A stretch of 59,079 nucleotides of DNA from a virus. The position numbers and the translations under genes are program-made. Numbering within the stretch: the first letter of the stretch is position 1; every line of letters starts with the position of its first letter. The notes under the pieces were generated by a model. The model saw nothing but the letters and a program-made list of their open reading frames with translations. It did no database searches and was not told where the DNA came from. Positions 1 through 59,079 of this stretch are shown here, one piece after another. The stretch lies in IMG/VR virus record IMGVR_UViG_3300006133_000009; one strand, given 5' to 3'.

Positions 1-77
1 GAGGTCGAATGTTCGGTGACGGTCTTTTCTTCTTCTTGAATGTCCCAACGGTAGAGATAACTTCCGTTGCCGACAGC
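1..77. repeat. Terminal overlap, identical to 59003..59079
   Basis: Read directly: gaggtcgaatgttcggtgacgg...ccgttgccgacagc occurs at both window ends. A minus-strand ORF reads through the junction without a stop. Confidence 0.95.
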
Positions 78-96
78 CTCCAAGGTTGAAGGCATT

Positions 97-1122
97 TCAT
101 CGTAAAATGCACGTTTCATAAAACTGAGGTTTAATTATAGTTTTGAGTAAATGTTTCGAGTTGCACACTTTCGCCCAGCCGAACCAACTGCAAAGACGCT
201 GTTTATATTCGGCGGCCGATATGTCGTTACGCTTGTTCAACCGAGCGGCGGCACGGCAAAAATTCTTCTTTATGCCTTTACGGATTAGCGTCTGATTGTG
301 ATAAAAGACAAATCCGACAAAATCCAAACCTCGACCGTGTTTGTCGTTTCGATTCTCCGCTATCGGAAATACTTGTTCGTTGCCTTTAAGCGATAGTTTG
401 AGCGTAGCGAGATATGCTTTAATCTCTTTGAGCAACGCTTGCAATTCTTCCTTGCTTGATGATAGAAATACCATATCATCGGCATATCGGAAGTAATACC
501 TAACGCGCTTGACCTCCTTAATCCAATGGTCGAAGTAAGCGAGCATAAGATTAGCGAAGTACTGACTTAGGTAGTTGCCGATAGGCACACCATCCGTACT
601 GTCGATTATCGTGTCTAAAAGTTTAAGCGTGTCGGCGCACTTGATTCTACGCCGGATTACTTGTTTAAGCACGTCATGGTCGATAGACGGATAGAACTTG
701 CGTACATCAATCTTCAGGCAATAGCGTGTATTCTCTTTGTCGCGTAGAGATTTCTTGACTTTCCGCATCGCGCCATGTATTCCTCGCCCTTTGATGCAAC
801 TGTATGTGTCGGTCGTGAATACCGATACCCATATAGGCTCTAACACATTCATAATCGCATGGTGCAAAATGCGGTCGGGATAATACGGAAGTCGGAATAT
901 CAAACGCTCTTTCGGCTCGTAGATTGTGAATGTCGAATAAGGCGAATTGACAAACGCCCGATTCTTCAGTTGCTCGTGAAGCGCGATGATGTTGGCTTCA
1001 CGGTTTTTGTCGTGAAGTCTTACACCATAGGAATTAATCTTGCCGCGCCTTGCCTTTTCATCGGCAAGTTGCAGATTCTCCAACGAGATTATTTTCTCAT
1101 ATAGATTTCCGATTCGCTTCAT
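97..1122 (-). CDS. DGR-type reverse transcriptase (341 aa)
   Basis: Has the RT catalytic motif RYADDMVF (YxDD). Has the DGR-RT hallmark IGNYLSQYFANLML (I/LGxxxSQ). Small size with no maturase or endonuclease domain. TR lies 148 nt upstream on the same strand. Confidence 0.9.
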   Translation of the reverse strand: MKRIGNLYEKIISLENLQLADEKARRGKINSYGVRLHDKNREANIIALHEQLKNRAFVNSPYSTFTIYEPKERLIFRLPYYPDRILHHAIMNVLEPIWVSVFTTDTYSCIKGRGIHGAMRKVKKSLRDKENTRYCLKIDVRKFYPSIDHDVLKQVIRRRIKCADTLKLLDTIIDSTDGVPIGNYLSQYFANLMLAYFDHWIKEVKRVRYYFRYADDMVFLSSSKEELQALLKEIKAYLATLKLSLKGNEQVFPIAENRNDKHGRGLDFVGFVFYHNQTLIRKGIKKNFCRAAARLNKRNDISAAEYKQRLCSWFGWAKVCNSKHLLKTIIKPQFYETCILR

Positions 1123-1270
1123 TAGCTTTGCTTTTCATTATTGGGGCTTTCGGCGGCGTGAATTGCTCCACGCTGCCTACTAACTCCGTTTTGAGGTGAA
1201 GTTTTTTGCCAAGTGGCACGGTCATTGCTCCGAGTTTTGAGTAGTTTTTTTTACCAGATTGAAAATCATT

Positions 1271-1378
1271 GACGGGACCTGACATTCGCATTCGTATTCG
1301 AGGGCGTGTTAGTCGCATTCGCATACGCAAAACCGGCATTCGCGCTGTTATTCGCATTACCGCTGAAAAGGACACCGC
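1271..1378 (-). repeat. DGR template repeat (TR), followed by a 148-nt spacer (1123..1270) before the RT start
   Basis: Aligns gap-free to 1843..1950 and over 105 nt to 42308..42412. Mismatches fall at TR adenines (T on the + strand). In the target reading frame the TR reads GVLFSGNANNSANAGFAYANATNTPSNTNANVRSRQ* with 9 AAY codons. Confidence 0.9.
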
Positions 1379-1400
1379 AAGAGCAATCAACCTTATATCG

Positions 1401-1763
1401 TCACTCGAAGTAATATCGGTTGCCGGTGACTTTCAGCGTCACTCTGCGAGGAAACGCATTGCGCTTCTTAATCTCGTTAAGAACGTACCGAATATCACGC
1501 GAGTTGGTGAAGAACTTTCGTGCGTCTTTATCCGGGTCATCAAGATTCATCTTGATTTTCACGAGGACGCGATTCTCGCCAAACTTCGTTTTCATTCCCT
1601 CGAAGAAGTCACACACCCAAAAGGTTGTGTTGATTAGATTCTGCTGATTCGTTTCTTTGCAGTTGAACTGCTTGTTTGTTTCGTCAGCCGGGATTTGGAG
1701 GAAGTCGAGCGAGCCATCATCGAATCTCTCTTTGTTTTCGATTGTTCCTTGTTTATTTCCCAT
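1401..1763 (-). CDS. Hypothetical protein in the DGR accessory (avd) position (120 aa)
   Basis: ORF lies between the target gene and the TR. AACGCAA-T-ATG start context. The sequence does not look like a four-helix-bundle Avd, so function is unassigned. Confidence 0.6.
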   Translation of the reverse strand: MGNKQGTIENKERFDDGSLDFLQIPADETNKQFNCKETNQQNLINTTFWVCDFFEGMKTKFGENRVLVKIKMNLDDPDKDARKFFTNSRDIRYVLNEIKKRNAFPRRVTLKVTGNRYYFE

Positions 1764-1819
1764 ATTGCGTTGTTGATTATTATGTTACTTGTCGTTTTTC
1801 GGGGGCGCGGCGTGCCGTG

Positions 1820-3262
1820 TTACGCTTTTGGGAAAAAGCAAAGACGGGACCCGACAGCCGCATACGTACTCGAGGGCGCGTTAGTAGCAGACGCACACGC
1901 AAAACCGGCATGCGCGCCGTGAATCGCACTACCGCCGAAAAGGACACCGCGCAGAGTTTCAGCACTTGGAATGTTAGTATAGTGGTAGTCGCAGAAATAC
2001 GTTGTCGAGCCTGCGCCGGAGCTTACAGACGGCATGATTTCGCCGTACTCTCCGAAGATTATCTCTTTGACATATCCATCGTTTCGAGCTTCGTTGCCAA
2101 CGTGCGAATAGCCGTTGTAGTTGCTGTCGGTGAATTTCTCCGGGTCATCACATACGAACACTTTGCTTAATCCGTCACCGGTCGGAGCGTTGGGACTGAT
2201 ACGGATATTGATGCCGTCAGTCCATTTCCAAATGTGTCCGAAAGGATTTTCTATGCCACGGTAACGAGGCACTGTAAAGGTGTCAATGTAGTCACCGTTT
2301 TCGGTGTATAGGTAGTAATCTACGATGCCAGACTTGTTGCCGTGGTGGTCTGTATACCCACATGGAATGAAAGGATAGTTTCCATTGAAAATGCTCCAAC
2401 TGTTCCAATCCCATGTAGTCACGCCATCGCCCAAACCGCCTTGACGATAGCCCTCCGAAGTTAATTGGGGGTTGTATGCAGCTTGGCTGTTGAGCGTGGC
2501 ATATTCGATAACGAATAACCAATAAAGCGTCTTTTGAGCTTCATAGGTCATGCAGTTCCATTCCGTGCTTCCGGCTTTACGATTGCGAGCGTAAGCACGG
2601 AAGTTTGTGCGACTGATGCCAGTAACCGGGCGACCGAGTGCCGAACGGCATGTGCCATCCCAAGCACTTTGATTTCCGCAGCCTCGGAAGTCGGCAGAAT
2701 CGTTCACGACTGATGAAAGTTTGTTGCCGGTACGCTGCAATGCCGCTTCGTATGCCGATATATACATTTTCGGAACGTGATGATAGCCGGGCAGAGGGTG
2801 TTCTGAGATTTTCACGCGCTGTTTGTTGCCGCTTGTTTCAAACTTGCGGTAGTGGTCGGGGATTTCGACCATTACTTGACCGCGTGAGCCGTCACGAGTA
2901 GAGCCGAGCCACGATTCCGGCGGCAGATACTCGACAACTTCGCCGTCATCGTTGAGCAAGCATCCTTTCATGCGGTTGTGAATCGGGAGCGAGCGGTGCA
3001 AGTCCGCGTTGCCGATTCGGGTGCAAGCCGGAGATGATACGGTTTTATCACGCTCAATGCCATAGGCGCATTGGCTCTCCAAATAAGGGAGCATAGACGC
3101 GAGCGCGGCTTTCTTGCTTTCGCCGTCTTTGTCGATAACGTGAGTTACGAGATTGAACGGATTGGTGCCGTCAACTTCCGGCAAGTCTTGAATGCGTTTG
3201 CCGCCCTCAAACGCTGCAAGCATCTGAATAACGACTGCTTCTTGTGCTGATGTTAATGCCAT
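1820..3262 (-). CDS. DGR target protein 1, tail-fibre/receptor-binding candidate with C-terminal VR (480 aa)
   Basis: C-terminus LFGGSAIHGAHAGFACASATNAPSSTYAAVGSRLCFFPKA carries VR1. This is the typical C-type-lectin/FGE-like DGR variable-domain ending (GxRLC). Lies in the tail-fibre gene block. Confidence 0.85.
   Translation of the reverse strand: MALTSAQEAVVIQMLAAFEGGKRIQDLPEVDGTNPFNLVTHVIDKDGESKKAALASMLPYLESQCAYGIERDKTVSSPACTRIGNADLHRSLPIHNRMKGCLLNDDGEVVEYLPPESWLGSTRDGSRGQVMVEIPDHYRKFETSGNKQRVKISEHPLPGYHHVPKMYISAYEAALQRTGNKLSSVVNDSADFRGCGNQSAWDGTCRSALGRPVTGISRTNFRAYARNRKAGSTEWNCMTYEAQKTLYWLFVIEYATLNSQAAYNPQLTSEGYRQGGLGDGVTTWDWNSWSIFNGNYPFIPCGYTDHHGNKSGIVDYYLYTENGDYIDTFTVPRYRGIENPFGHIWKWTDGINIRISPNAPTGDGLSKVFVCDDPEKFTDSNYNGYSHVGNEARNDGYVKEIIFGEYGEIMPSVSSGAGSTTYFCDYHYTNIPSAETLRGVLFGGSAIHGAHAGFACASATNAPSSTYAAVGSRLCFFPKA
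1843..1950 (-). repeat. DGR variable repeat VR1
   Basis: 108 nt aligned to the TR with 16 mismatches. 15 are at TR adenines and 1 is a synonymous GCG-to-GCT change. Lies in the last ~43 codons of the 480-aa ORF. Confidence 0.9.
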
Positions 3263-3279
3263 ATATAAATATTTAGAGG

Positions 3280-4032
3280 TTAGTTGAATAGGAAATTACC
3301 CGAAGAGAGTAACATTGCGGTATTGCGATTCTTGACAAATGCAAGTCCGGCGCACTTAACTCTTATCGAGATTGTCTTGTATAGCTGTGTGTTGCCGGTC
3401 GGTATAACGTGAATCACGCTTACACCCTCGTGATTTATCGTTATTCGACCGTCCGGCGCGACTGACACGGCGTTATTGTCGCCGAGATACATAATGTTCG
3501 GCAGCGAATATCCCGGCTGGAGCTTGGCGCGTATGAATATCTCGGCGAGATTTCCGAGTGTCAGCTCTTCCGGGTATTCAACCGTCATGCCGGTAGGAAG
3601 CAACCCAAGCGATGTTACTTGTGAAGCTGCGTCAATCAACGCTTGACACAGTTCCGTAGCCGAGATTGTTTCTTCTTTCGCCGTGAGTGCTTCTTCTGCG
3701 GCTGTGTTGGCTGCTATTGTCGCCGCTGAAGCTGCTGCGGCTTGCGTGTTAGCGTTTCCGGCGGCTGTGTTGGCTGCATTCGCCATTTGCAACGCTTGTT
3801 CCTTTGCTGCGTTGGCGTTTGCCGCCGTCGTGAGTGCTTCTTCTGCGGAAACGACACAAAACCACCATGCCTTATCGGTAACGGCATGATTCGTGTTGCC
3901 GTCTTTGATAGACAAATACGCGCCGTTGTTGTGTGAAACGAGGTCTAAACGCTCGTATGTTGTCGCTGTTGAATATGCGCCTTTGGGCGATATTGCGACT
4001 TTTCCTAAGTCGATTGATAAATTGCCTGGCAT
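3280..4032 (-). CDS. Tail-fibre-associated protein with Ala-rich coiled segment and Ig-like C-terminus (250 aa)
   Basis: ORF in the tail module. The C-terminal VSVAPDGRITINHEGVSVIHVIPTGNTQLYKTISIRV resembles a Big_2-type Ig domain. Confidence 0.5.
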   Translation of the reverse strand: MPGNLSIDLGKVAISPKGAYSTATTYERLDLVSHNNGAYLSIKDGNTNHAVTDKAWWFCVVSAEEALTTAANANAAKEQALQMANAANTAAGNANTQAAAASAATIAANTAAEEALTAKEETISATELCQALIDAASQVTSLGLLPTGMTVEYPEELTLGNLAEIFIRAKLQPGYSLPNIMYLGDNNAVSVAPDGRITINHEGVSVIHVIPTGNTQLYKTISIRVKCAGLAFVKNRNTAMLLSSGNFLFN

Positions 4033-4035
4033 AGA

Positions 4036-4854
4036 TTACTGATATATGAATTTTAAGTGACCTGTTTCCTTGTCGAGAATGAATTGATTTTCGGCGATTT
4101 GGTCTTGATAATACATTACGAGGTGCATATTGCTGTCATCAACGATAAATGACGGATAAAGCACACCGCCTTTTGCGAGAATGCCGGTATCAACATACTT
4201 TTTGGCTGTTTCATCCCACTTCCACCAATTACCATTTTCGCCCATTTTCGGGGGATTGTCGGCTTGCTCTTTTGCTCGACCGGCTTGTTTGTCAGCTTCT
4301 TTAGCTGAATTGTTCGCGGTCGTAGCTGCATTGTTGGCGTTAGTGGCTGCAGCATTAGCATTTTTCGTAGCGTCTGCGGCGGCTTCCTTTGAATCGTCAA
4401 CACTCTTCGCGGCATCGTTGGCGGCTTTCGTAGCGTCTTCGGCATTCTTCTTTAGAGTGGCGTGTTCTGTCACTCTATTCAATTCAGAGGTTACGCGAGC
4501 ATTCTCGGCTTGTTTCCGGGCATTTTCATTATTGATGCGTGTAGTTTCATTATTCTTTCGCGTCTGCTCGTTTGACTGTCGTGTTTGCTCATTCGATTGT
4601 CGGGTCTGCTCGTTGGCTTCAATGGCTTTGCGTGAATTATCGGCATTCGTGGCGGCTGTATTCGCTCGTTGAGTAGCTTTGTCGGCGTTGTTGATAGCGG
4701 TTTCAACGCCCGATTTGAGCGATGCGATAGTGTCAGCGATATATTGCAGCGACACTCGGACGCTTCGGTTAAGAGCGTCAACGCCGATAGTCCACAAGCC
4801 GTTGAATGCGGTTGACGGAGTAAGCTCCGATATTTTCTTTCTTATTGCACCCAT
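4036..4854 (-). CDS. Tail-fibre-like coiled-coil protein with heptad tandem repeats (272 aa)
   Basis: Carries NEQTRQS NEQTRQS NEQTRKN NETTRIN NENARKQ AENARVT repeats and Asn/Ala-rich coiled coil. Lies in the tail module. Confidence 0.55.
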   Translation of the reverse strand: MGAIRKKISELTPSTAFNGLWTIGVDALNRSVRVSLQYIADTIASLKSGVETAINNADKATQRANTAATNADNSRKAIEANEQTRQSNEQTRQSNEQTRKNNETTRINNENARKQAENARVTSELNRVTEHATLKKNAEDATKAANDAAKSVDDSKEAAADATKNANAAATNANNAATTANNSAKEADKQAGRAKEQADNPPKMGENGNWWKWDETAKKYVDTGILAKGGVLYPSFIVDDSNMHLVMYYQDQIAENQFILDKETGHLKFIYQ

Positions 4855-9300: not shown

Positions 9301-10770
9301 GCCGTATTTGTCGTTAAGCTCCTTGACTTTCTTTTTCTCTTGTTCTTTCGAGCCGGTGAAATTTTTGCAAGCCTTGATATTGTCTTCAAGTGCGATTTGC
9401 TCTTGAATGTAGGTCTTCGCGGCTTCTTCTTCGATTTTGTTAAGCTCTTGCGTATGTTTCACCGCTTCGTCTTCGGCGGTGCATAGGTCAACTATCCACG
9501 ACACGAGTTCACCGACAAGCACGACTAACGCGCCTATGCCGGTCGATATAAGCGCGAGTTTCAACACTCGCATTGCTATCGACATTGCCTTTGAAGCGGC
9601 AGTACCGGCAACCAATGCGCCGGTGTGAGCGTTTTGTGCCGCTGTCGCCGCGTTGGTGGCAGTTGTGTTGGTCGCTTGTGCGCCTGCTCCGGCAGTCGTA
9701 ACGGAATTGTTCGCTTGCTGTGCGGCTGTTTCGGCTTCTGTGACTGCTGCATTCTCGGCTGTCGCTGTCGTATTGGCGTTCTGTGCTGCTGTCGCGGTGG
9801 CTGTGGCGGCTGCTTCTTGTGTCTGTGCCGATGCACTTTTTCCGATTAGCTTGTTCCACGTTTGTTTAAGCGAGTTGAGCGTTACGAGAGAGAATGCGGA
9901 ATCCTTGTTTAATGTCTGCTGAACTTGCTGCAACCCCATTGTGATAGCCATTAGGGATTGCACTTTCAGCATTATTTCTTGGAGATGTTCATTCTCACCG
10001 GCGAATAGTCCTACTGCGCCCTGTGCTGCTGAAAACGCGCCCGATAAGCCGGTAAGTCCCGATATTACTCCGGCAAACTGATTTTCGTCATTGGCAAATA
10101 CGTTTCCGGCTGCTTGTATGTCGCCTTGAATATCGCGTAAGCGTCCGAGTTCTTCGATGATTTCACGATAACGCCCGGTAGTCTTGTCTATCTCACGCCC
10201 TTGTGCTTGCTCGGCATCTCGCAACGCCGCAGCTTCCATTGTAAGCTCACGAATACGCTGGCGTAATGACTGTGTGGAATTAGCTTGTTTCTCGGCTGCG
10301 TTGGCGGCTGCAACTAATGACTTCTCGTTTTTTTGCAGTTCTTTTTCTTCAGCTTGTGCCGCCGCGATTACTTCTTTGCGAGCCGCGATTACTTCTTGAA
10401 TCGCCTTGCGCTGCTGTCGTAGCTCTTTGACATATTCGCCGCGTCCGGGAACATTCGCGTATTTGTTGGCTTCATCCGTAACGTGGCGATAGGCATCTTG
10501 CAGTTCAACTACGGCTTCGTTGTTCTCGCGTATAACTCGCGCTATATGCGCGTATGCTTCGCCGATAGCGTTCAATGTCGGCGTATCATCGTGAAGAAAT
10601 TTGAGGTCAACTTCCGGGATAGAAGACGATATGAGCTGTTGAATCCTCGCACTTTCCTGCTCAATCTGCGAAGTCACGCCGCTGACTTTCTCGGCCATGT
10701 GGTCGAGAGCTGCGTCATATTCCGAGGTATCAACCCTCGCGGCATAGGAAAGTCCGTCATTCGTGTTCAT
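6328..10770 (-). CDS. Tail tape measure protein (1480 aa)
   Basis: Very long, largely helical ORF directly after the chaperone frameshift pair. Has a hydrophobic segment ALISTGIGALVVLVGELVSWIV and Ala/Thr/Asn low-complexity stretches. Confidence 0.85.
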   Translation of the reverse strand: MNTNDGLSYAARVDTSEYDAALDHMAEKVSGVTSQIEQESARIQQLISSSIPEVDLKFLHDDTPTLNAIGEAYAHIARVIRENNEAVVELQDAYRHVTDEANKYANVPGRGEYVKELRQQRKAIQEVIAARKEVIAAAQAEEKELQKNEKSLVAAANAAEKQANSTQSLRQRIRELTMEAAALRDAEQAQGREIDKTTGRYREIIEELGRLRDIQGDIQAAGNVFANDENQFAGVISGLTGLSGAFSAAQGAVGLFAGENEHLQEIMLKVQSLMAITMGLQQVQQTLNKDSAFSLVTLNSLKQTWNKLIGKSASAQTQEAAATATATAAQNANTTATAENAAVTEAETAAQQANNSVTTAGAGAQATNTTATNAATAAQNAHTGALVAGTAASKAMSIAMRVLKLALISTGIGALVVLVGELVSWIVDLCTAEDEAVKHTQELNKIEEEAAKTYIQEQIALEDNIKACKNFTGSKEQEKKKVKELNDKYGEALGYYDSLEQWERVLTERGPAYCEMLRMKAVQQGLLNKYVEAYVEALEIAHKAENGEFDRGWYNPARWFGESNDERRARITKEAQDEADMWKEEMTKQKAELEAFQEENHFDVVHIDPKSGGKGGSGKTFDPKAAAREQRKLLAEYQAEVKKYISDTNNAISQAMIDGMEAGYAKELATIRKNGADRKKAWEQSLLELAGAMRDNAHAIFMTQKGATEEAWENSEQGKRSLQDWVTELLKNKDVANNYAQGLTDIANSVERQLAEVRTKYMNQLIDEFGSYDDKFDKLTIEWAKKINTVASIAPDLLPEAMKKMEEAFASLKAEDFKKTINWDVVFGDLGNQSLQSLQYALDKVRTYFNREKDGMSVEQIKTFQEAITAMENEIASRNPFTALHKSFKDISTSKDELVAALAEVAAAQSVLNDAESEYRAALLAKNEILGQIETGELAQDCQELADANERVTASEKKLTDAKTKSQQADQRVLNARNNVTKSYKTFATQLKSAGTVVTDLGGRASKLARIFSGDIADSMDKALGFIDEVVDAAGDVISAIGDVGKSVSKDVAQTAEAAGTATQATAQTTATSISTVEKASIILTVISAALQIATAIASLFNDDESKQKEIERLQERIDQLQWELDNADTVRFKERVGDAVKKLNSVYRATTEEVLHLHLSTQQYSNWWVRTLGQMVYRNEIYEKSIQKLADAYAGVGYTADKALGGKKYEESRKQIENLAEQQILIQRQINQERDKKDTDNGKIEDWQRQIQEIAHEMATIINEMLEDIIGGSSADISKRLGDAFIDAAAQGEDAMEAWHSTVKDIIADITKRMLISKLIEEPIGQIFDKYKTKWFGSDGRFKGIDNVINSMNSLSSDLNEVGSNFMQVWQNMPEDWKKWFAPLDDAEREGTQKGIATASQDSVDENNARLTTIQEHTYTLVQGVKELNATGNKLLEVATGIRENTKETNDKLNDVKTDVKAIKSSVDEIESRGLKIRT

Positions 10771-42227: not shown

Positions 42228-42842
42228 TCATCCGAAATAGAAGTCTTGCCAAATCTTGATAAACTGTGTACCGAAATACTCGGCGAGAGCTTCAGATTTT
42301 ACGCAAAGACGGGACCCGACAGACGCAGCCGCATCCGAGGGCGCGGGAGTCGCAGTCGCATACGCAAAACCGGCATGCGCGCCGTTACCCGCAGCACCGC
42401 CGAAAAGGACACATTTGGCTCTCTGCTTCTCGTTCATCTTGTCTATCTCTTTTTGAGTATAGAGCCAGTACCACGGCCACCACTTTTCTTCGCCTTTAAC
42501 ATACTTCGGCTCCCAACCCTCATTGAGAGCGGCGGCGATGATGCGGAGCTTCAGATATGCTACGATGTCTTTTGCCGTTTCATCCATTGGCGGATTCTGC
42601 TCCTCGACTATGCGGCGATACTGATTGACAAAGGCGTGATTGCCGAGGACTGCACAAGCATCCTCAAATGTCTTCACACGCTCGGTTATCGGTCGGGGGT
42701 CAACTTGTATCGGCTCGGCGGCGTCACCGTATAGGTCGCGGAGTAACTGCTGAATTTCGGGGTTTTCACCGGCGTTGCGGAAAGCCGCCTGGACTTGTTC
42801 GATAGTCGGCTGCTTAAATCCGACTGCTTCATTTTCTTTCAT
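42228..42842 (-). CDS. DGR target protein 2, small early-region protein with a C-terminal VR (204 aa)
   Basis: C-terminal LFGGAAGNGAHAGFAYATATPAPSDAAASVGSRLC is encoded by VR2. No signal peptide was seen. Confidence 0.8.
   Translation of the reverse strand: MKENEAVGFKQPTIEQVQAAFRNAGENPEIQQLLRDLYGDAAEPIQVDPRPITERVKTFEDACAVLGNHAFVNQYRRIVEEQNPPMDETAKDIVAYLKLRIIAAALNEGWEPKYVKGEEKWWPWYWLYTQKEIDKMNEKQRAKCVLFGGAAGNGAHAGFAYATATPAPSDAAASVGSRLCVKSEALAEYFGTQFIKIWQDFYFG
42308..42412 (-). repeat. DGR variable repeat VR2 (remote)
   Basis: 105 nt aligned gap-free to TR 1271..1375 with 18 mismatches, all at TR adenines. Shares the IMH-like end GGGTCCCGTCTTTGC with VR1. Confidence 0.85.
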
Positions 42843-50222: not shown

Positions 50223-51401
50223 TTATCGCTCGTTTTCGTCATTTTGGGAACGCTCTCCGAAAATGTCCGGGATTCTCGCAACGGCAGCTTGCTTGTTTTT
50301 GTCAAGGACTTTCGCGTATATCTGCGTTGTCGATAGTTCACGATGTCCGAGTAGCTTGCTGACTGTGTAAATGTCGGTGCCGATGTCGAGCATGAGGACT
50401 GCGAATGTATGGCGGCCACAATGGAATGTGATGTGTTTGTCGATGCCGGCGCGTAGGCACCACTCTTTAATGGCGTGATTCGTGTCGCTCGGATATCGGA
50501 TGTCACCAAAGACATATTCGCCCGGCTTTCCTCGCTCTCCCAGGAGGTCGGCAGCTTGAGGCGTGATGTCGAGATATTCTTGACCGCCGGTTTTCTTTTG
50601 CCGGAAGATAATGCGTGTGAAGTCGCCTTGCTTCTGCATTTCGCCCCAAGTCAGCTTCACGATATCGCTACGGCGTAAGCCGGTAAGACACGAAAAGAGA
50701 AAGGCGCGTTTGATTTCCGGGAACTCGCATTGAGTGTCAACGAGCTTTCGGATTTCTTCGAGCGTCAGATACATTCGCGTACCCTCTTCGCCGCTGAATC
50801 CGTCAATGCCACGCATAGGATTGTGCGGAATGATTCTATCTTCGTATGCTTGATTAAGACACGCCCGGAGCTTGTTAAAATAACTCTGCTTAGAGTTCTG
50901 CGACAATGGGCGGCGGTCTGCTCTCACTCGCTTGTCATTGCCGAATGCCTCGGCTTTCTTGTCAAGGTAGGTTCTGAATCCCTCGACCCAACGCGGCGTG
51001 ATTTCGGCGAATGTGATGCGTTTGTTCCGCTCGTACTTTTCGAGATGCTTCAAGCACGATAGCCAGTTGCCCCAATTGCCTCGGCTCTCTTTGCCGAGCC
51101 GCTTTTCAGTCATAGCGCGGTAGTAGTCGAAGAATAGAGTATCTTCGGCAAACTGTGATTTGAATCCGTAGTCGCCGTTCTGCATCTCAACGAGCCGTTT
51201 GCCGAGAATCGACTGTGCGAGTTGCATAGTCTGCTTGTTTTTCTCCTTGTCGGCGCGTGTCTTCTCCGGGATTAGGTAGAGCTTCAGAAACTCGTAATCT
51301 CTCTTGCCGTCTTTGTGGTATATGTCGAGATACAGGCTTATGTTACCGTTGAGTAGTTTCCGTTTCCGAAGCCGGATAGGTGATTTGTTTGTATCAGTCA
51401 T
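50223..51401 (-). CDS. int: Tyrosine integrase (392 aa)
   Basis: Catalytic region LTGLRRSD...HCGRHTFAV...LLGHRELSTTQIYAKV (R..H.R..H/Y). N-terminal SAM-like arm-binding region, as in Bacteroides phage integrases. Confidence 0.85.
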   Translation of the reverse strand: MTDTNKSPIRLRKRKLLNGNISLYLDIYHKDGKRDYEFLKLYLIPEKTRADKEKNKQTMQLAQSILGKRLVEMQNGDYGFKSQFAEDTLFFDYYRAMTEKRLGKESRGNWGNWLSCLKHLEKYERNKRITFAEITPRWVEGFRTYLDKKAEAFGNDKRVRADRRPLSQNSKQSYFNKLRACLNQAYEDRIIPHNPMRGIDGFSGEEGTRMYLTLEEIRKLVDTQCEFPEIKRAFLFSCLTGLRRSDIVKLTWGEMQKQGDFTRIIFRQKKTGGQEYLDITPQAADLLGERGKPGEYVFGDIRYPSDTNHAIKEWCLRAGIDKHITFHCGRHTFAVLMLDIGTDIYTVSKLLGHRELSTTQIYAKVLDKNKQAAVARIPDIFGERSQNDENER

Positions 51402-58704: not shown

Positions 58705-59079
58705 TTAGTCGATGTTTAATGATTCACAGTCCGCGTCAACTTGTGCCTTGATAGCATCTCGCTCGGTGAGGAATGCTTTATAGGCGTTGATAGCTGACTG
58801 TGCTTTCTCGCCGGATTTTGTGCCGAAGCATCCGAGCGTGGCGGCGTTGTAGTCGTTGATTAGTTTCTTCTCACGGTTATTAGGCCACATAGCGGCGATG
58901 ACGGCTTCAAGAATCTTGTTGCTTGACACCGGCGACCATATCGTGACTTCAAAGCACGAGTATTGTTTGCTGCTCTCTTGTGCTGTGACTGTTTCGCCGT
59001 CAGAGGTCGAATGTTCGGTGACGGTCTTTTCTTCTTCTTGAATGTCCCAACGGTAGAGATAACTTCCGTTGCCGACAGC
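58705..59079 (-). CDS. Hypothetical tail-module protein spanning the circular junction (130 aa; first 6 codons lie at 78..95)
   Basis: The reading frame stays open from the ATG at 95..93 through position 1 into 59002..58705. The ATG lies 1 nt after the RT stop (TGA-A-ATG). The ORF track shows only the last 74 aa. Confidence 0.55.
   Translation of the reverse strand, partial: AVGNGSYLYRWDIQEEEKTVTEHSTSDGETVTAQESSKQYSCFEVTIWSPVSSNKILEAVIAAMWPNNREKKLINDYNAATLGCFGTKSGEKAQSAINAYKAFLTERDAIKAQVDADCESLNID
59003..59079. repeat. Terminal overlap, identical to 1..77
   Basis: Direct comparison of the two window ends. Confidence 0.95.

Follow-up and report, generated by a model that had tools for sequence, protein, structure and literature searches.

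The locus considered here raises the question of whether a set of repeats, a reverse transcriptase (RT) gene and a small ORF lying beside phage tail genes make up a diversity-generating retroelement (DGR), whether such an element is still at work, and what part the small ORF could play in it. The window, that is, the whole stretch of DNA analyzed (59,079 nt; IMG/VR record IMGVR_UViG_3300006133_000009), is the complete 59-kb genome of a temperate mouse-gut Muribaculaceae phage, and a cultured Muribaculaceae isolate contains a prophage near-identical to it. DGRs are common among the temperate phages of Bacteroidota. Our reading, to which we assign a probability of about 0.93, is that the element is an active DGR of the Avd-less Bacteroidota-phage type (“lineage 3”), in which the small ORF, called ACC here (accessory candidate), would act as a partner of the RT.

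Anatomy of the Element

An earlier note, made from the letters alone, had described a complete DGR cassette at 97–3262, with the minus-strand order target gene, 120-aa ORF, template repeat (TR), spacer and RT. Every coordinate and count that was checked is reproduced, and the order is confirmed as target 1 (with its variable repeat, VR1), ACC, TR, spacer (with an RT-17 RNA) and RT. The parts are all there; their confinement to 97–3262 did not stand, as the same TR also has a remote target, target 2, with a second variable repeat (VR2).

TR (1271–1378, minus strand; 1262..1378 with its 3′ extension) aligns gap-free to VR1 (1843–1950, minus strand; 1834..1950 with the extension), and 15 of the 16 mismatches over 108 nt fall on the 25 adenines of TR (hypergeometric P = 5.4e-11 for at least 15 of 16), the sole exception being a synonymous GCG-to-GCT change in codon 459. 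In the target frame TR translates as GVLFSGNANNSANAGFAYANATNTPSNTNANVRSRQ followed by a stop, with 9 AAY codons, and it is proof against read-through, closing in CAA TGA; it is a non-coding copy, 148 nt upstream of the RT. The third copy of the repeat, VR2 (42299..42412, minus strand), differs from the 105-nt core of TR at 18 positions, all of them TR adenines (P = 6e-15), which for the two VRs pooled gives 33 of 34 differences at adenines. This A-only pattern, which recurs in about 60 related loci, supports at two VRs the adenine-directed mutagenic retrohoming that the note had proposed.

The homology of TR and VR1 continues for 9 nt on the 3′ side (TR 1262–1270 vs. VR1 1834–1842), and within this extension the AATGA of TR faces the TTTGC of VR1. 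The 3′ end of TR (1262–1279) is IMH*-like, GGTCCCGTC AATGA, that of VR1 (1834–1851) is IMH-like, GGTCCCGTC TTTGC, and the 3′ boundary of VR2, GGGTCCCGTCTTTGC, is identical to that of VR1. Thus GGGTCCCGTC followed by TTTGC is common to both VRs, where TR has AGGTCCCGTC followed by AATGA; the VR-type and the TR-type sequences are each kept across related loci, the conserved TR-specific one being AATGATTTTCA. The difference would constitute an IMH/IMH* pair for directional transfer. When the window and its relatives were compared, no conserved stem-loop or cruciform of the BPP-1 type was found downstream of the VRs: a 6-bp hairpin 3′ of VR1 occurs in the window alone, being missing at VR2 and unconserved in relatives, and the folding energy of the region 3′ of the VRs is no better than that of shuffled sequences. 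A stem-loop of the BPP-1 type enhances the process and is not strictly required for it.

Variation Among Related Genomes

The note had proposed looking for heterogeneity confined to TR adenines, and the comparison of near-identical assembled genomes from other samples favors an active DGR: these genomes have 4–17 SNPs over 4.4 kb outside VR1, vs. 15–18 differing positions inside the 108 nt of VR1. Measured against its own TR, VR1 differs exclusively at adenines in loci L085, L087, and L089, and at adenines in 14 of 15 positions in L091; pooled over six genomes, TR adenines account for 89 of 100 TR–VR1 mismatches (Fisher P 6e-55), and ten of the remaining 11 come from a single locus, L090, where the “TR” looks chimeric. 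Clustering of proteins at 90% identity yields 623 variants for target 1 and 483 for target 2, and in samples of 15 variants each the variable columns gather at the VRs (16 of 20 within aa 445–469 of target 1, and 14 of 23 within aa 150–174 of target 2). In addition, the window TR has two private changes (A>G and A>C), and VR1 and VR2 both have exactly those bases, so that both must have been copied from the window TR. Activity is read here from assembled variants of independent samples; by this comparison of sequences the DGR is active, with an ongoing diversification that appears limited to TR-adenine positions.

The Reverse Transcriptase and the Spacer RNA

The RT (97..1122, minus strand; 341 aa) contains both YADD and IGNYLSQ, as had been noticed earlier, and the latter fits the motif [I/V/L]GxxxSQ, which has been described together with the role of its first residue (PMC7826257). 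It matches Pfam RVT_1 (E 8e-21) and PHROG 1423 (434 bits), and its best PDB match is the BPP-1 DGR RT (8ub7; E 2.3e-45, residues 2–334), in whose alignment IGNYLSQ pairs with IGSLTSQ of bRT, and the Arg of PKERLI with that of PKPRLI; this match leads the other solved ones by about 90 bits, the group II-like RTs standing at ~1e-17. The profile and PDB matches and the motif together classify the RT as DGR type. Identification as a retron, group II intron or defense RT (DRT, Abi) was discarded on curated family cut-offs, in that the NCBIfam group II, retron, and DRT models all remain below theirs (117 vs. 300 for group II, 91 vs. 200 for Drt3a, 66 vs. 235 for retron), PADLOC gives only RT and DRT-type model matches of at most 130 bits, and no group II or retron RNA is found by Rfam in 1–4000.

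The 148-nt spacer between TR and RT (1123–1270, minus strand) contains a structured spacer RNA (Sp), RT-17 (Rfam RF03020; 1127..1223, minus strand), whose score of 41.9 bits exceeds the gathering threshold (40.4) and which matches over the full model. RT-17 is also above the gathering score directly upstream of the RT in nine related loci, with both gene orders, and 19 aligned spacers show two helices with compensatory changes. By analogy with BPP-1, we infer that this RNA recruits the RT.

The Target Proteins

Target 1 (1820..3262, minus strand), of 480 aa, matches PHROG 5302 “tail protein” (E 7e-135) and is homologous to crAss-like tail and tail-collar fiber proteins, including the DGR target of crAssphage LMMB; its neighbors are tape-measure and tail genes on one side and a 1543-aa tail-associated protein on the other. 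VR1 occupies codons 438–474 of 480, ~36 codons near the C-terminus. Its position in the tail module and the crAss-like tail-collar fiber homology suggest that target 1 is a receptor-binding protein. As the crAss-like tail-collar fiber targets are classed as CLec3 in the literature, a CLec fold may be supposed for target 1 from this homology, its sole support; in the search for such a fold, the AF2 model was of low confidence (mean pLDDT 66, and <50 for residues 414–480), and neither Foldseek against the PDB nor a PDB profile search gave anything significant.

Target 2 (42228..42842, minus strand) is an acidic 204-aa protein of PHROG 11581 (unknown function), encoded in a replication/recombination module next to a DnaD-like loader, a metal-dependent hydrolase, RecT, and an SbcC-like protein. 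VR2 covers its codons ~144–180 and is followed by 24 more residues. Homologs of target 2 are found in LoVEphage-type phages and in the Bacteroides phage Versailles, where the homolog also has a VR.

The 120-Residue Protein ACC

ACC (1401..1763, minus strand) encodes a basic (pI 9.1), beta-rich protein of 120 aa, assigned to PHROG 19665 (unknown function), which takes the position that avd has in BPP-1. Its AF2 model (pLDDT 82.8) has five strands and one main helix, in the order beta1-beta2-beta3-alpha-beta4-beta5; by its topology and by non-significant PDB matches, this predicted structure looks OB-like. An OB-like topology is typical of proteins that bind nucleic acids. ACC matches nothing in Pfam, NCBIfam, PADLOC, or PDB sequences, even at permissive thresholds for Pfam, NCBIfam, and the PDB.

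Avd is an all-helical, four-helix-bundle, basic protein of ~110–130 aa. The idea that ACC is itself an Avd was rejected, as there is no family match and the prediction is beta-rich, size (120 aa) and basic pI being the sole shared traits. Within the sensitivity of HMMs, there is no Avd in the genome: 45 small ORFs gave 15 Pfam families, none related to Avd, and the ACC ORF, scanned separately against Pfam, gave no Avd-family match. Judging from these searches, the Avd-containing architecture (type B of Wu et al.) does not seem to fit the element.

What distinguishes ACC is its co-inheritance with the RT. It has 264 homologs, and across loci its gene stands either before TR or 3′ of the RT, or else the domain is joined to the C-terminal end of the RT itself. 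By tblastn it is present in 77 of 80 related IMG/VR loci; of the three negative ones, two are cut upstream and the other (L061) is cut 236 nt after the RT and has no ACC upstream, and all RT relatives at least 64% identical that have enough flank have ACC. Searching GTDB from ACC, an RT lies 238–365 nt downstream in 60 of 63 loci, in which RT identity falls to about 36–41%. The C-terminus of the Hankyphage RT contains an ACC domain (blastp E 1e-11, 34% identity), the domain is also C-terminal in other RTs of 433–583 aa, and in BFVD the best structural matches of ACC are viral RT-domain proteins. Thus ACC looks like a candidate for an RT-partner domain, a role suggested by comparison alone. That it would represent an unrecognized class of accessory subunit, basic and OB-fold-like, replacing Avd in a large “Avd-less” branch of Bacteroidota phages and binding the RT together with either the spacer RNA (RT-17/RT-3) or the cDNA as it forms, is a proposal that we hold at even odds. 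The DGR accessory proteins of Wu et al. (2018; PMC5758913) are Avd, HRDC, MSL, and CH1, and no description of an ACC-type subunit was found in the searchable literature, the supplementary sequences of that work (including PAG1–4) aside.

Comparison With Known DGRs

The DGR itself is an ordinary representative of a known class, the Avd-less “lineage 3” DGRs of Bacteroidota phages. The BPP-1 DGR (mtd-avd-TR-brt) is arranged in the same way, from a VR-bearing target through the gene of a small, basic accessory protein, TR, and a structured spacer to the RT. In both elements the transfer from TR to VR is A-specific and the VR lies 3′-terminally in a gene associated with the tail, and the two RTs, each with [I/V/L]GxxxSQ, are homologous from end to end (E 2e-45). 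The present element differs in that the accessory protein of BPP-1 is the helical bundle Avd, with which ACC, predicted beta-rich and OB-like, has no sequence match; that BPP-1 has a hairpin after its VR and a spacer RNA of another family; and that a second, remote target is present here.

The crAss-like DGRs of “lineage 3” (e.g., crAssphage LMMB, PMC7290462; classification PMC5758913) are closer, with RTs 47–57% identical, a C-terminal VR of ~35 codons, no avd, and, in crAssphage LMMB, a tail-collar fiber target homologous to target 1 (30% identity, E 7e-38). Published accounts give their cassettes as target-TR-RT, lacking an accessory gene (PMC7290462, PMC5758913), and no ACC was detected in cr115_1 and cr55_1, in contrast to the conserved ACC gene here; hence ACC does not occur in all Avd-less DGRs. 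Hankyphage (Bacteroides phage p00, BK010646; PMC6199706, PMC12135933) is likewise a temperate phage of Bacteroidales with an active DGR, an ACC domain, and an RNA of an Rfam RT family between TR and RT. However, the ACC domain there makes up the last ~95 aa of a 434-aa RT and is not encoded separately, the spacer RNA belongs to RT-3, the target is a protein of ~2,200 aa, and the phage is a Mu-like transposable one; a separate small ORF in it has been called Avd-like from size and pI only (PMC6199706, PMC12135933).

As for the second target, a distal VR in addition to the first has been reported for Bacteroidota prophages (Nature 2025, PMC12629997), likewise with one TR, a tail-protein VR beside the RT, and a VR in a distant protein of ~200 aa; the LoVEphage-type phages with target 2 homologs belong to that study, and in Versailles (ON453897) the homolog lies in the same recombination/replication module with 14 A-only mismatches. 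These are other phage species from another host family than the Muribaculaceae, and in the double-VR prophages the second target lies beside a methyltransferase, whereas here it is found between replication and recombination genes.

Proposed Mechanism and Alternative Explanations

In the mechanism that we propose, the RT would bind a transcript covering TR and the structured spacer (RT-17) and would copy TR into cDNA with misincorporation opposite template adenines. The cDNA would take the place of VR1, in the 3′-terminal part of the tail-protein gene, and would do so in trans for VR2, some 41 kb distant; how far the transfer reaches on the 3′ side would be set by the boundary GGGTCCCGTC|TTTGC that both VRs have, as against GTC|AATGA in TR. 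Retrohoming would in this way rewrite 16 codons, 9 of them AAY; counted from the TR codons, the possible peptides per target are about 5e14. ACC would be a nucleic-acid-binding partner of the RT, doing what Avd does in BPP-1, free-standing in this phage and RT-fused in elements of the Hankyphage type.

Alternative explanations are that the RT is of a different class (retron, group II intron or defense-associated RT) and that ordinary mutation or gene conversion has driven apart the repeats, as paralogous lectin-like segments, or that the cassette is an inactive relic whose TR/VR differences are old and whose retrohoming has ceased. The former is hardly credible: generic RT models of those classes do match the protein (E 1e-17 to 1e-34), but far under their curated cut-offs and behind the BPP-1 DGR RT among solved structures, the motif is IGxxxSQ and not QGxxxSP, the TR copy is non-coding with a stop in the target frame, and the concentration of nearly all the differences on one template base is beyond ordinary divergence. 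The latter could appeal to the one non-adenine (synonymous) difference of VR1 and to the two adenines that the window TR has lost relative to sibling strains, yet it is very improbable, given VR1 alleles that differ at 15–18 adenine positions between genomes with as few as 4 SNPs in 4.4 kb, VR variants numbering hundreds per 90% cluster, the window-specific TR bases in both VRs, and an RT, an ACC, and a spacer RNA that are all intact.

Greater weight, although we still consider it unlikely, is due to the explanation that ACC lies outside the retroelement, as a phage gene travelling with the tail-protein gene (e.g., a fiber chaperone or assembly factor), either side of which TR-RT was inserted. 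Leaving TR-RT aside, in most loci the first protein-coding gene to follow the target is ACC; as it mostly adjoins the target gene too, part of the ACC–RT linkage could be linkage to the tail module; crAss-like DGRs function without a detectable ACC; and the ACC–RT association is a comparative one, drawn from sequences. Against this, the domain is RT-fused in the Mu-like Hankyphage, with its very different target, and in the other DGR RTs of 433–583 aa; no ACC-like gene adjoins the target-1 homologs of RT-less phages (Porphyromonas phage005b, p-crAssphage gp54); in the annotated phage collection ACC occurs inside RT genes only; and ACC is basic with a predicted OB-like topology, as in nucleic-acid binders. 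ACC as a partner of the RT is thus the reading that we prefer.

Significance

A DGR in this phage is expected biology, and elements with two VRs have already been reported. The value of the present one lies in being a clean natural example, with a complete 59-kb genome, a prophage in a cultured isolate, hundreds of VR alleles, and two targets, in which a private TR mutation copied into both VRs shows the flow of information inside one genome. Target 2, situated among early replication and recombination genes, is a lead to uses of DGR diversification outside structural proteins. Avd is missing from about a quarter of DGRs, an abundant gut-phage lineage included. For these Avd-less DGRs, a concrete candidate for how the RT assembles on its template is offered by the conserved putative partner domain, which some RTs carry as a fusion, and ACC would also help in the reconstitution of compact, Avd-free DGRs for directed evolution.

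Cassette organization and repeats

The region 97–3262, which an earlier note had described from the sequence as a complete diversity-generating retroelement (DGR), was reproduced on the minus strand in its whole arrangement: a 480-aa ORF (target 1; 1820–3262), a 120-aa ORF (the accessory candidate, ACC; 1401–1763), a template repeat (TR; 1262–1378), a gap of 148 nt and a reverse transcriptase (RT) of 341 aa (97–1122). The alignment of TR (1271–1378) with the variable repeat of target 1 (VR1; 1843–1950) is gap-free and contains 16 mismatches, 15 of them where TR has an adenine, while the remaining one, GCG to GCT, is synonymous, just as that note had reported; with 25 A in the 108 nt of TR, at least 15 of 16 mismatches on A would be expected by chance with P = 5e-11. 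The reading of TR in the target frame, with its nine AAY codons, and the YADD and IGNYLSQ motifs of the RT were also recovered, and, in general, the observation is confirmed and its interpretation supported.

A third copy of the repeat (VR2) was returned by the repeat finder at 42299–42415, and over the 105-nt core all 18 of its differences from TR are at adenines (P = 6e-15). VR1 and VR2 have a common 3′ end, GGGTCCCGTC followed by TTTGC, where TR has instead AGGTCCCGTC followed by AATGA, and the two types of 3′ sequence are each kept across relatives; on the sequence, this difference at the boundary reads as the IMH/IMH* arrangement expected for a DGR. A hairpin after the VRs, like that of phage BPP-1, was rejected as a feature: VR1 of the window is followed by one of 6 bp, which is energetically not unusual, and neither VR2 nor the relatives have it. 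The contigs of three comparison loci (L086, L087, and L088) end inside TR, at locus position 4477 (about 1286 in the window), where public contigs often break; three repeat copies confuse assemblers, and DGRs called automatically from contigs of this kind will lack parts.

The two targets

Target 1 belongs to PHROG 5302 (“tail protein”) and shares homology across more than 85% of its length with crAss-like tail and tail-collar fibre proteins, the published DGR target of crAssphage LMMB being among its homologues. The tape-measure and tail proteins precede it, and a 1543-aa protein whose prophage-tail match is weak follows; this neighbourhood, together with the PHROG and tail-collar homology, makes “tail-fibre block” a fair description. 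The AF2 model (50 homologues) reaches a pLDDT of 66 with the VR region disordered, its best Foldseek match in the PDB has an E-value of 0.63, and a profile search of the PDB returned a single hit, which was spurious. No CLec call follows from these results, and the CLec fold and the receptor-binding role, both raised previously, are putative.

Target 2 (42228–42842, minus strand, with VR2 at 42299–42412) is an acidic protein of 204 aa assigned to PHROG 11581, of unknown function, and is found in a replication/recombination module, with a DnaD-like loader on one side and hydrolase, RecT, and SbcC-like genes on the other. Its VR is unusual in not forming the protein end, as 24 further codons follow. 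LoVEphage-type phages have homologues, and so does Bacteroides phage Versailles, whose copy is encoded in the corresponding module and is a VR in its own right (L092:3352–3458), of the same design and with 14 mismatches to the Versailles TR, all at A. Distal second VRs were reported in Bacteroidota prophages in 2025 (PMC12629997), so that a remote target is known in kind.

Reverse transcriptase and spacer RNA

Pfam recognizes in the RT only the generic RVT_1 domain, and the NCBIfam models for group II, retron, and DRT enzymes all score far below their cut-offs, for which reason these classes were rejected. The protein matches the phage family PHROG 1423 with 434 bits, and its best solved match is the DGR RT of Bordetella phage BPP-1 (8ub7; E = 2e-45 across the full length, against about 1e-17 for the class that follows), in whose alignment IGNYLSQ falls on the IGSLTSQ of the BPP-1 enzyme. 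This is the signature motif [I/V/L]GxxxSQ, the first residue of which promotes adenine misincorporation (PMC7826257). The profile and structure-database matches, together with this motif, favour a DGR-type enzyme, as had been proposed. The nearest annotated RTs are those of crAss-like phages (47–57% identity); one of them, the enzyme of crAssphage LMMB, has been assigned to “lineage 3” of Wu et al., which lacks Avd, the accessory protein of the BPP-1 DGR (PMC7290462; PMC5758913). In the crAss-like phage cr111_1 (L159:4812–5198), the DGR has decayed, with only an RT fragment of about 129 aa (48% identity) beside the target-1 homologue, which agrees with published accounts of incomplete cassettes in this phage group. 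The PADLOC defence-system models gave no hit for ACC, target 1, or target 2.

The spacer between TR and RT contains an RNA (1127–1223, minus strand) that scores above the gathering threshold of Rfam RF03020 (RT-17 RNA) and ends 4 nt before the RT start codon; nine related loci have a member of this family at that position as well. When 19 spacers are aligned, compensatory changes are seen in both a UGCC-N4-GGCA hairpin and a longer helix, and the tail GAAAAGCAAAG is invariant. By analogy with the BPP-1 spacer, this RNA would recruit the RT.

Natural variation and activity

Variation among assembled genomes speaks against an inactive relic. At 90% identity, the protein clusters contain 623 distinct sequences of target 1 and 483 of target 2; in alignments of 15 cluster members per target, 16 of the 20 variable columns of target 1 lie at aa 445–469 and 14 of the 23 of target 2 at aa 150–174, the variable columns coinciding with codons in whose first or second position TR has an adenine (Fisher P = 3e-5 and 1e-4, respectively). 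Compared with the window, five near-identical sibling genomes obtained from other sequencing runs have 4–17 SNPs over about 4.4 kb outside VR1, against 15–18 changed positions within the 108 nt of VR1, and, when each genome is compared with its own TR, the TR–VR1 mismatches fall at adenines in 18/18, 12/12, 19/19, and 14/15 cases in four of them. The heterogeneity at TR-adenine positions that the earlier note had looked to is therefore seen among near-identical genomes of other samples. The “TR” of the sibling L090 (L090:4385–4492), with VR-like substitutions and an indel, was treated as an assembly chimera, which it probably is.

The TR itself also differs between the window and its siblings, in that two adenines have changed, from AATACGAATAAC to AATGCGACTAAC (A to G and A to C; window 1312–1316, positions 4447 and 4451 in siblings L085, L089, and L091). 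Mutagenised cDNA may, as a rare event, have homed into TR by mistake, or the cause may be ordinary mutation. The window-specific G and C are present in both VR1 and VR2, which indicates that both VRs were rewritten from their own TR after that change. With both VRs following a private change of the TR, and VR1 hypervariable at adenines in otherwise near-identical genomes, the inactive relic is effectively excluded, short of read-level confirmation.

Genome and host

Bases 1–77 are identical to 59003–59079, and this exact terminal direct repeat of 77 nt makes the window a complete, circularly closed assembly of 59,002 bp. A 138-aa ORF after the RT, on the minus strand (58705..59002 joined to 1..119), extends across the circular junction as far as the RT stop, which it overlaps; Pfam gave no match for this ORF. 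The tyrosine-type integrase of PHROG 1 (50223–51401, minus strand) identifies the phage as temperate. A megablast of 1–3600 against 50,697 phage records gave no match, and thus no close annotated relative; a near-identical element is found in Muribaculaceae bacterium Isolate-036 (Harlan) (contig RIAY01000006.1, L094), with ACC 100%, RT 99.7%, and target 1 97% identical; Muribaculum gordoncarteri also carries an annotated protein 86% identical to target 1. The window is that of a temperate Muribaculaceae phage. Isolate-036 (Harlan) is a cultured mouse-gut isolate, and its near-identical copy of the DGR region offers an experimental handle.

Short imperfect direct repeats (3651–3848 and 9629–9812; spacings of 21, 63, and 84 nt) lie within the tape-measure gene and two fibre-like ORFs (250 and 272 aa), in Ala/Asn/Thr-rich parts that resemble coiled coils, and look like low-complexity coding repeats rather than regulatory elements. 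Sigma-70 promoter and intrinsic terminator models, whose coverage does not extend to Bacteroidota promoters, found fewer sites in 1–3400 than in shuffled sequences.

The candidate accessory ORF

ACC occupies the position that avd has in BPP-1. It was rejected as an Avd, having no match in Pfam, NCBIfam, PADLOC, or PDB sequences and a beta-rich model, and a Pfam scan of 45 small ORFs of the genome, with the ACC ORF scanned separately, found no Avd-like family. In the predicted model (pLDDT 83), the elements follow one another as beta-beta-beta-alpha-beta-beta, which is the order of the OB fold; no Foldseek match in the PDB is significant, those obtained being scattered OB-fold/SSB proteins with E-values of 0.15–2; topology and matches together hint at an OB-like protein. 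Its pI is 9.1. The family comprises 264 close homologues and 181 representatives at E ≤ 0.001, all without annotation.

The genomic behaviour of ACC points to the retroelement. It is present in 77 of the 80 IMG/VR loci found via the RT (tblastn); of the other three, L015 and L036 are cut upstream, and in L061, where the sequence stops 236 nt past the RT, the target immediately precedes the RT with no ACC. When GTDB genomes were searched from ACC, 60 of 63 loci had an RT 238–365 nt downstream, at RT identities down to about 36–41%, and no ACC-like neighbour accompanies the target-1 homologues of RT-less phages. Two gene orders exist, target-ACC-TR-RT and target-TR-RT-(about 400 nt)-ACC; the downstream copies are only 30–38% identical to that of the window, and in these loci the TR lies in the roughly 300 nt between target and RT, none being found downstream of the RT.

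In the annotated phage collection, the only ACC matches lie inside RT genes. In the Hankyphage (Bacteroides phage p00) record, the domain corresponds to residues ~340–420 of a 434-aa RT; the profile also finds proteins of 433–583 aa with RVT_1 followed by the ACC domain, one beginning with a translated TR, and the best structural neighbours of the ACC model among viral proteins are RT-domain proteins. The Hankyphage TR–RT spacer (L081:2292–2441) is Rfam RT-3 (146.6 bits), against RT-17 in the clade of the window, so that the spacer RNA family is not the same for fused as for free ACC.

The crAss-like DGRs show no ACC (the ORF after the cr55_1 RT is dissimilar, hhalign E = 0.3, and cr115_1 has none). 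In Versailles, the RT of which is 43% identical, the second ORF after the RT (L084:6450–6830; 126 aa) resembles ACC weakly but over nearly its full length (15 bits in hmmsearch, E = 0.011 in hhalign), has the motifs FYTDS and PFR, and may be a very divergent ACC. Both cases count against the universality of ACC.

Discussion

In the work on Hankyphage, a separate small ORF was called Avd-like on the basis of pI and size (PMC6199706). The searchable literature contains no mention of the C-terminal domain of its RT or of an OB-like DGR accessory, the supplement of Wu et al. (CH1, PAG1-4) being outside this comparison; on an Avd-independent or OB-fold accessory, nothing was found beyond a general statement by Wu et al. 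(2018; PMC5758913). ACC may already be listed as a “potential accessory gene” among their supplementary sequences.

What the analysis contributes beyond the earlier note is thus a remote second target, known in kind since 2025, and a non-Avd candidate accessory domain, which was not found described, and it is this domain that is worth an experiment.
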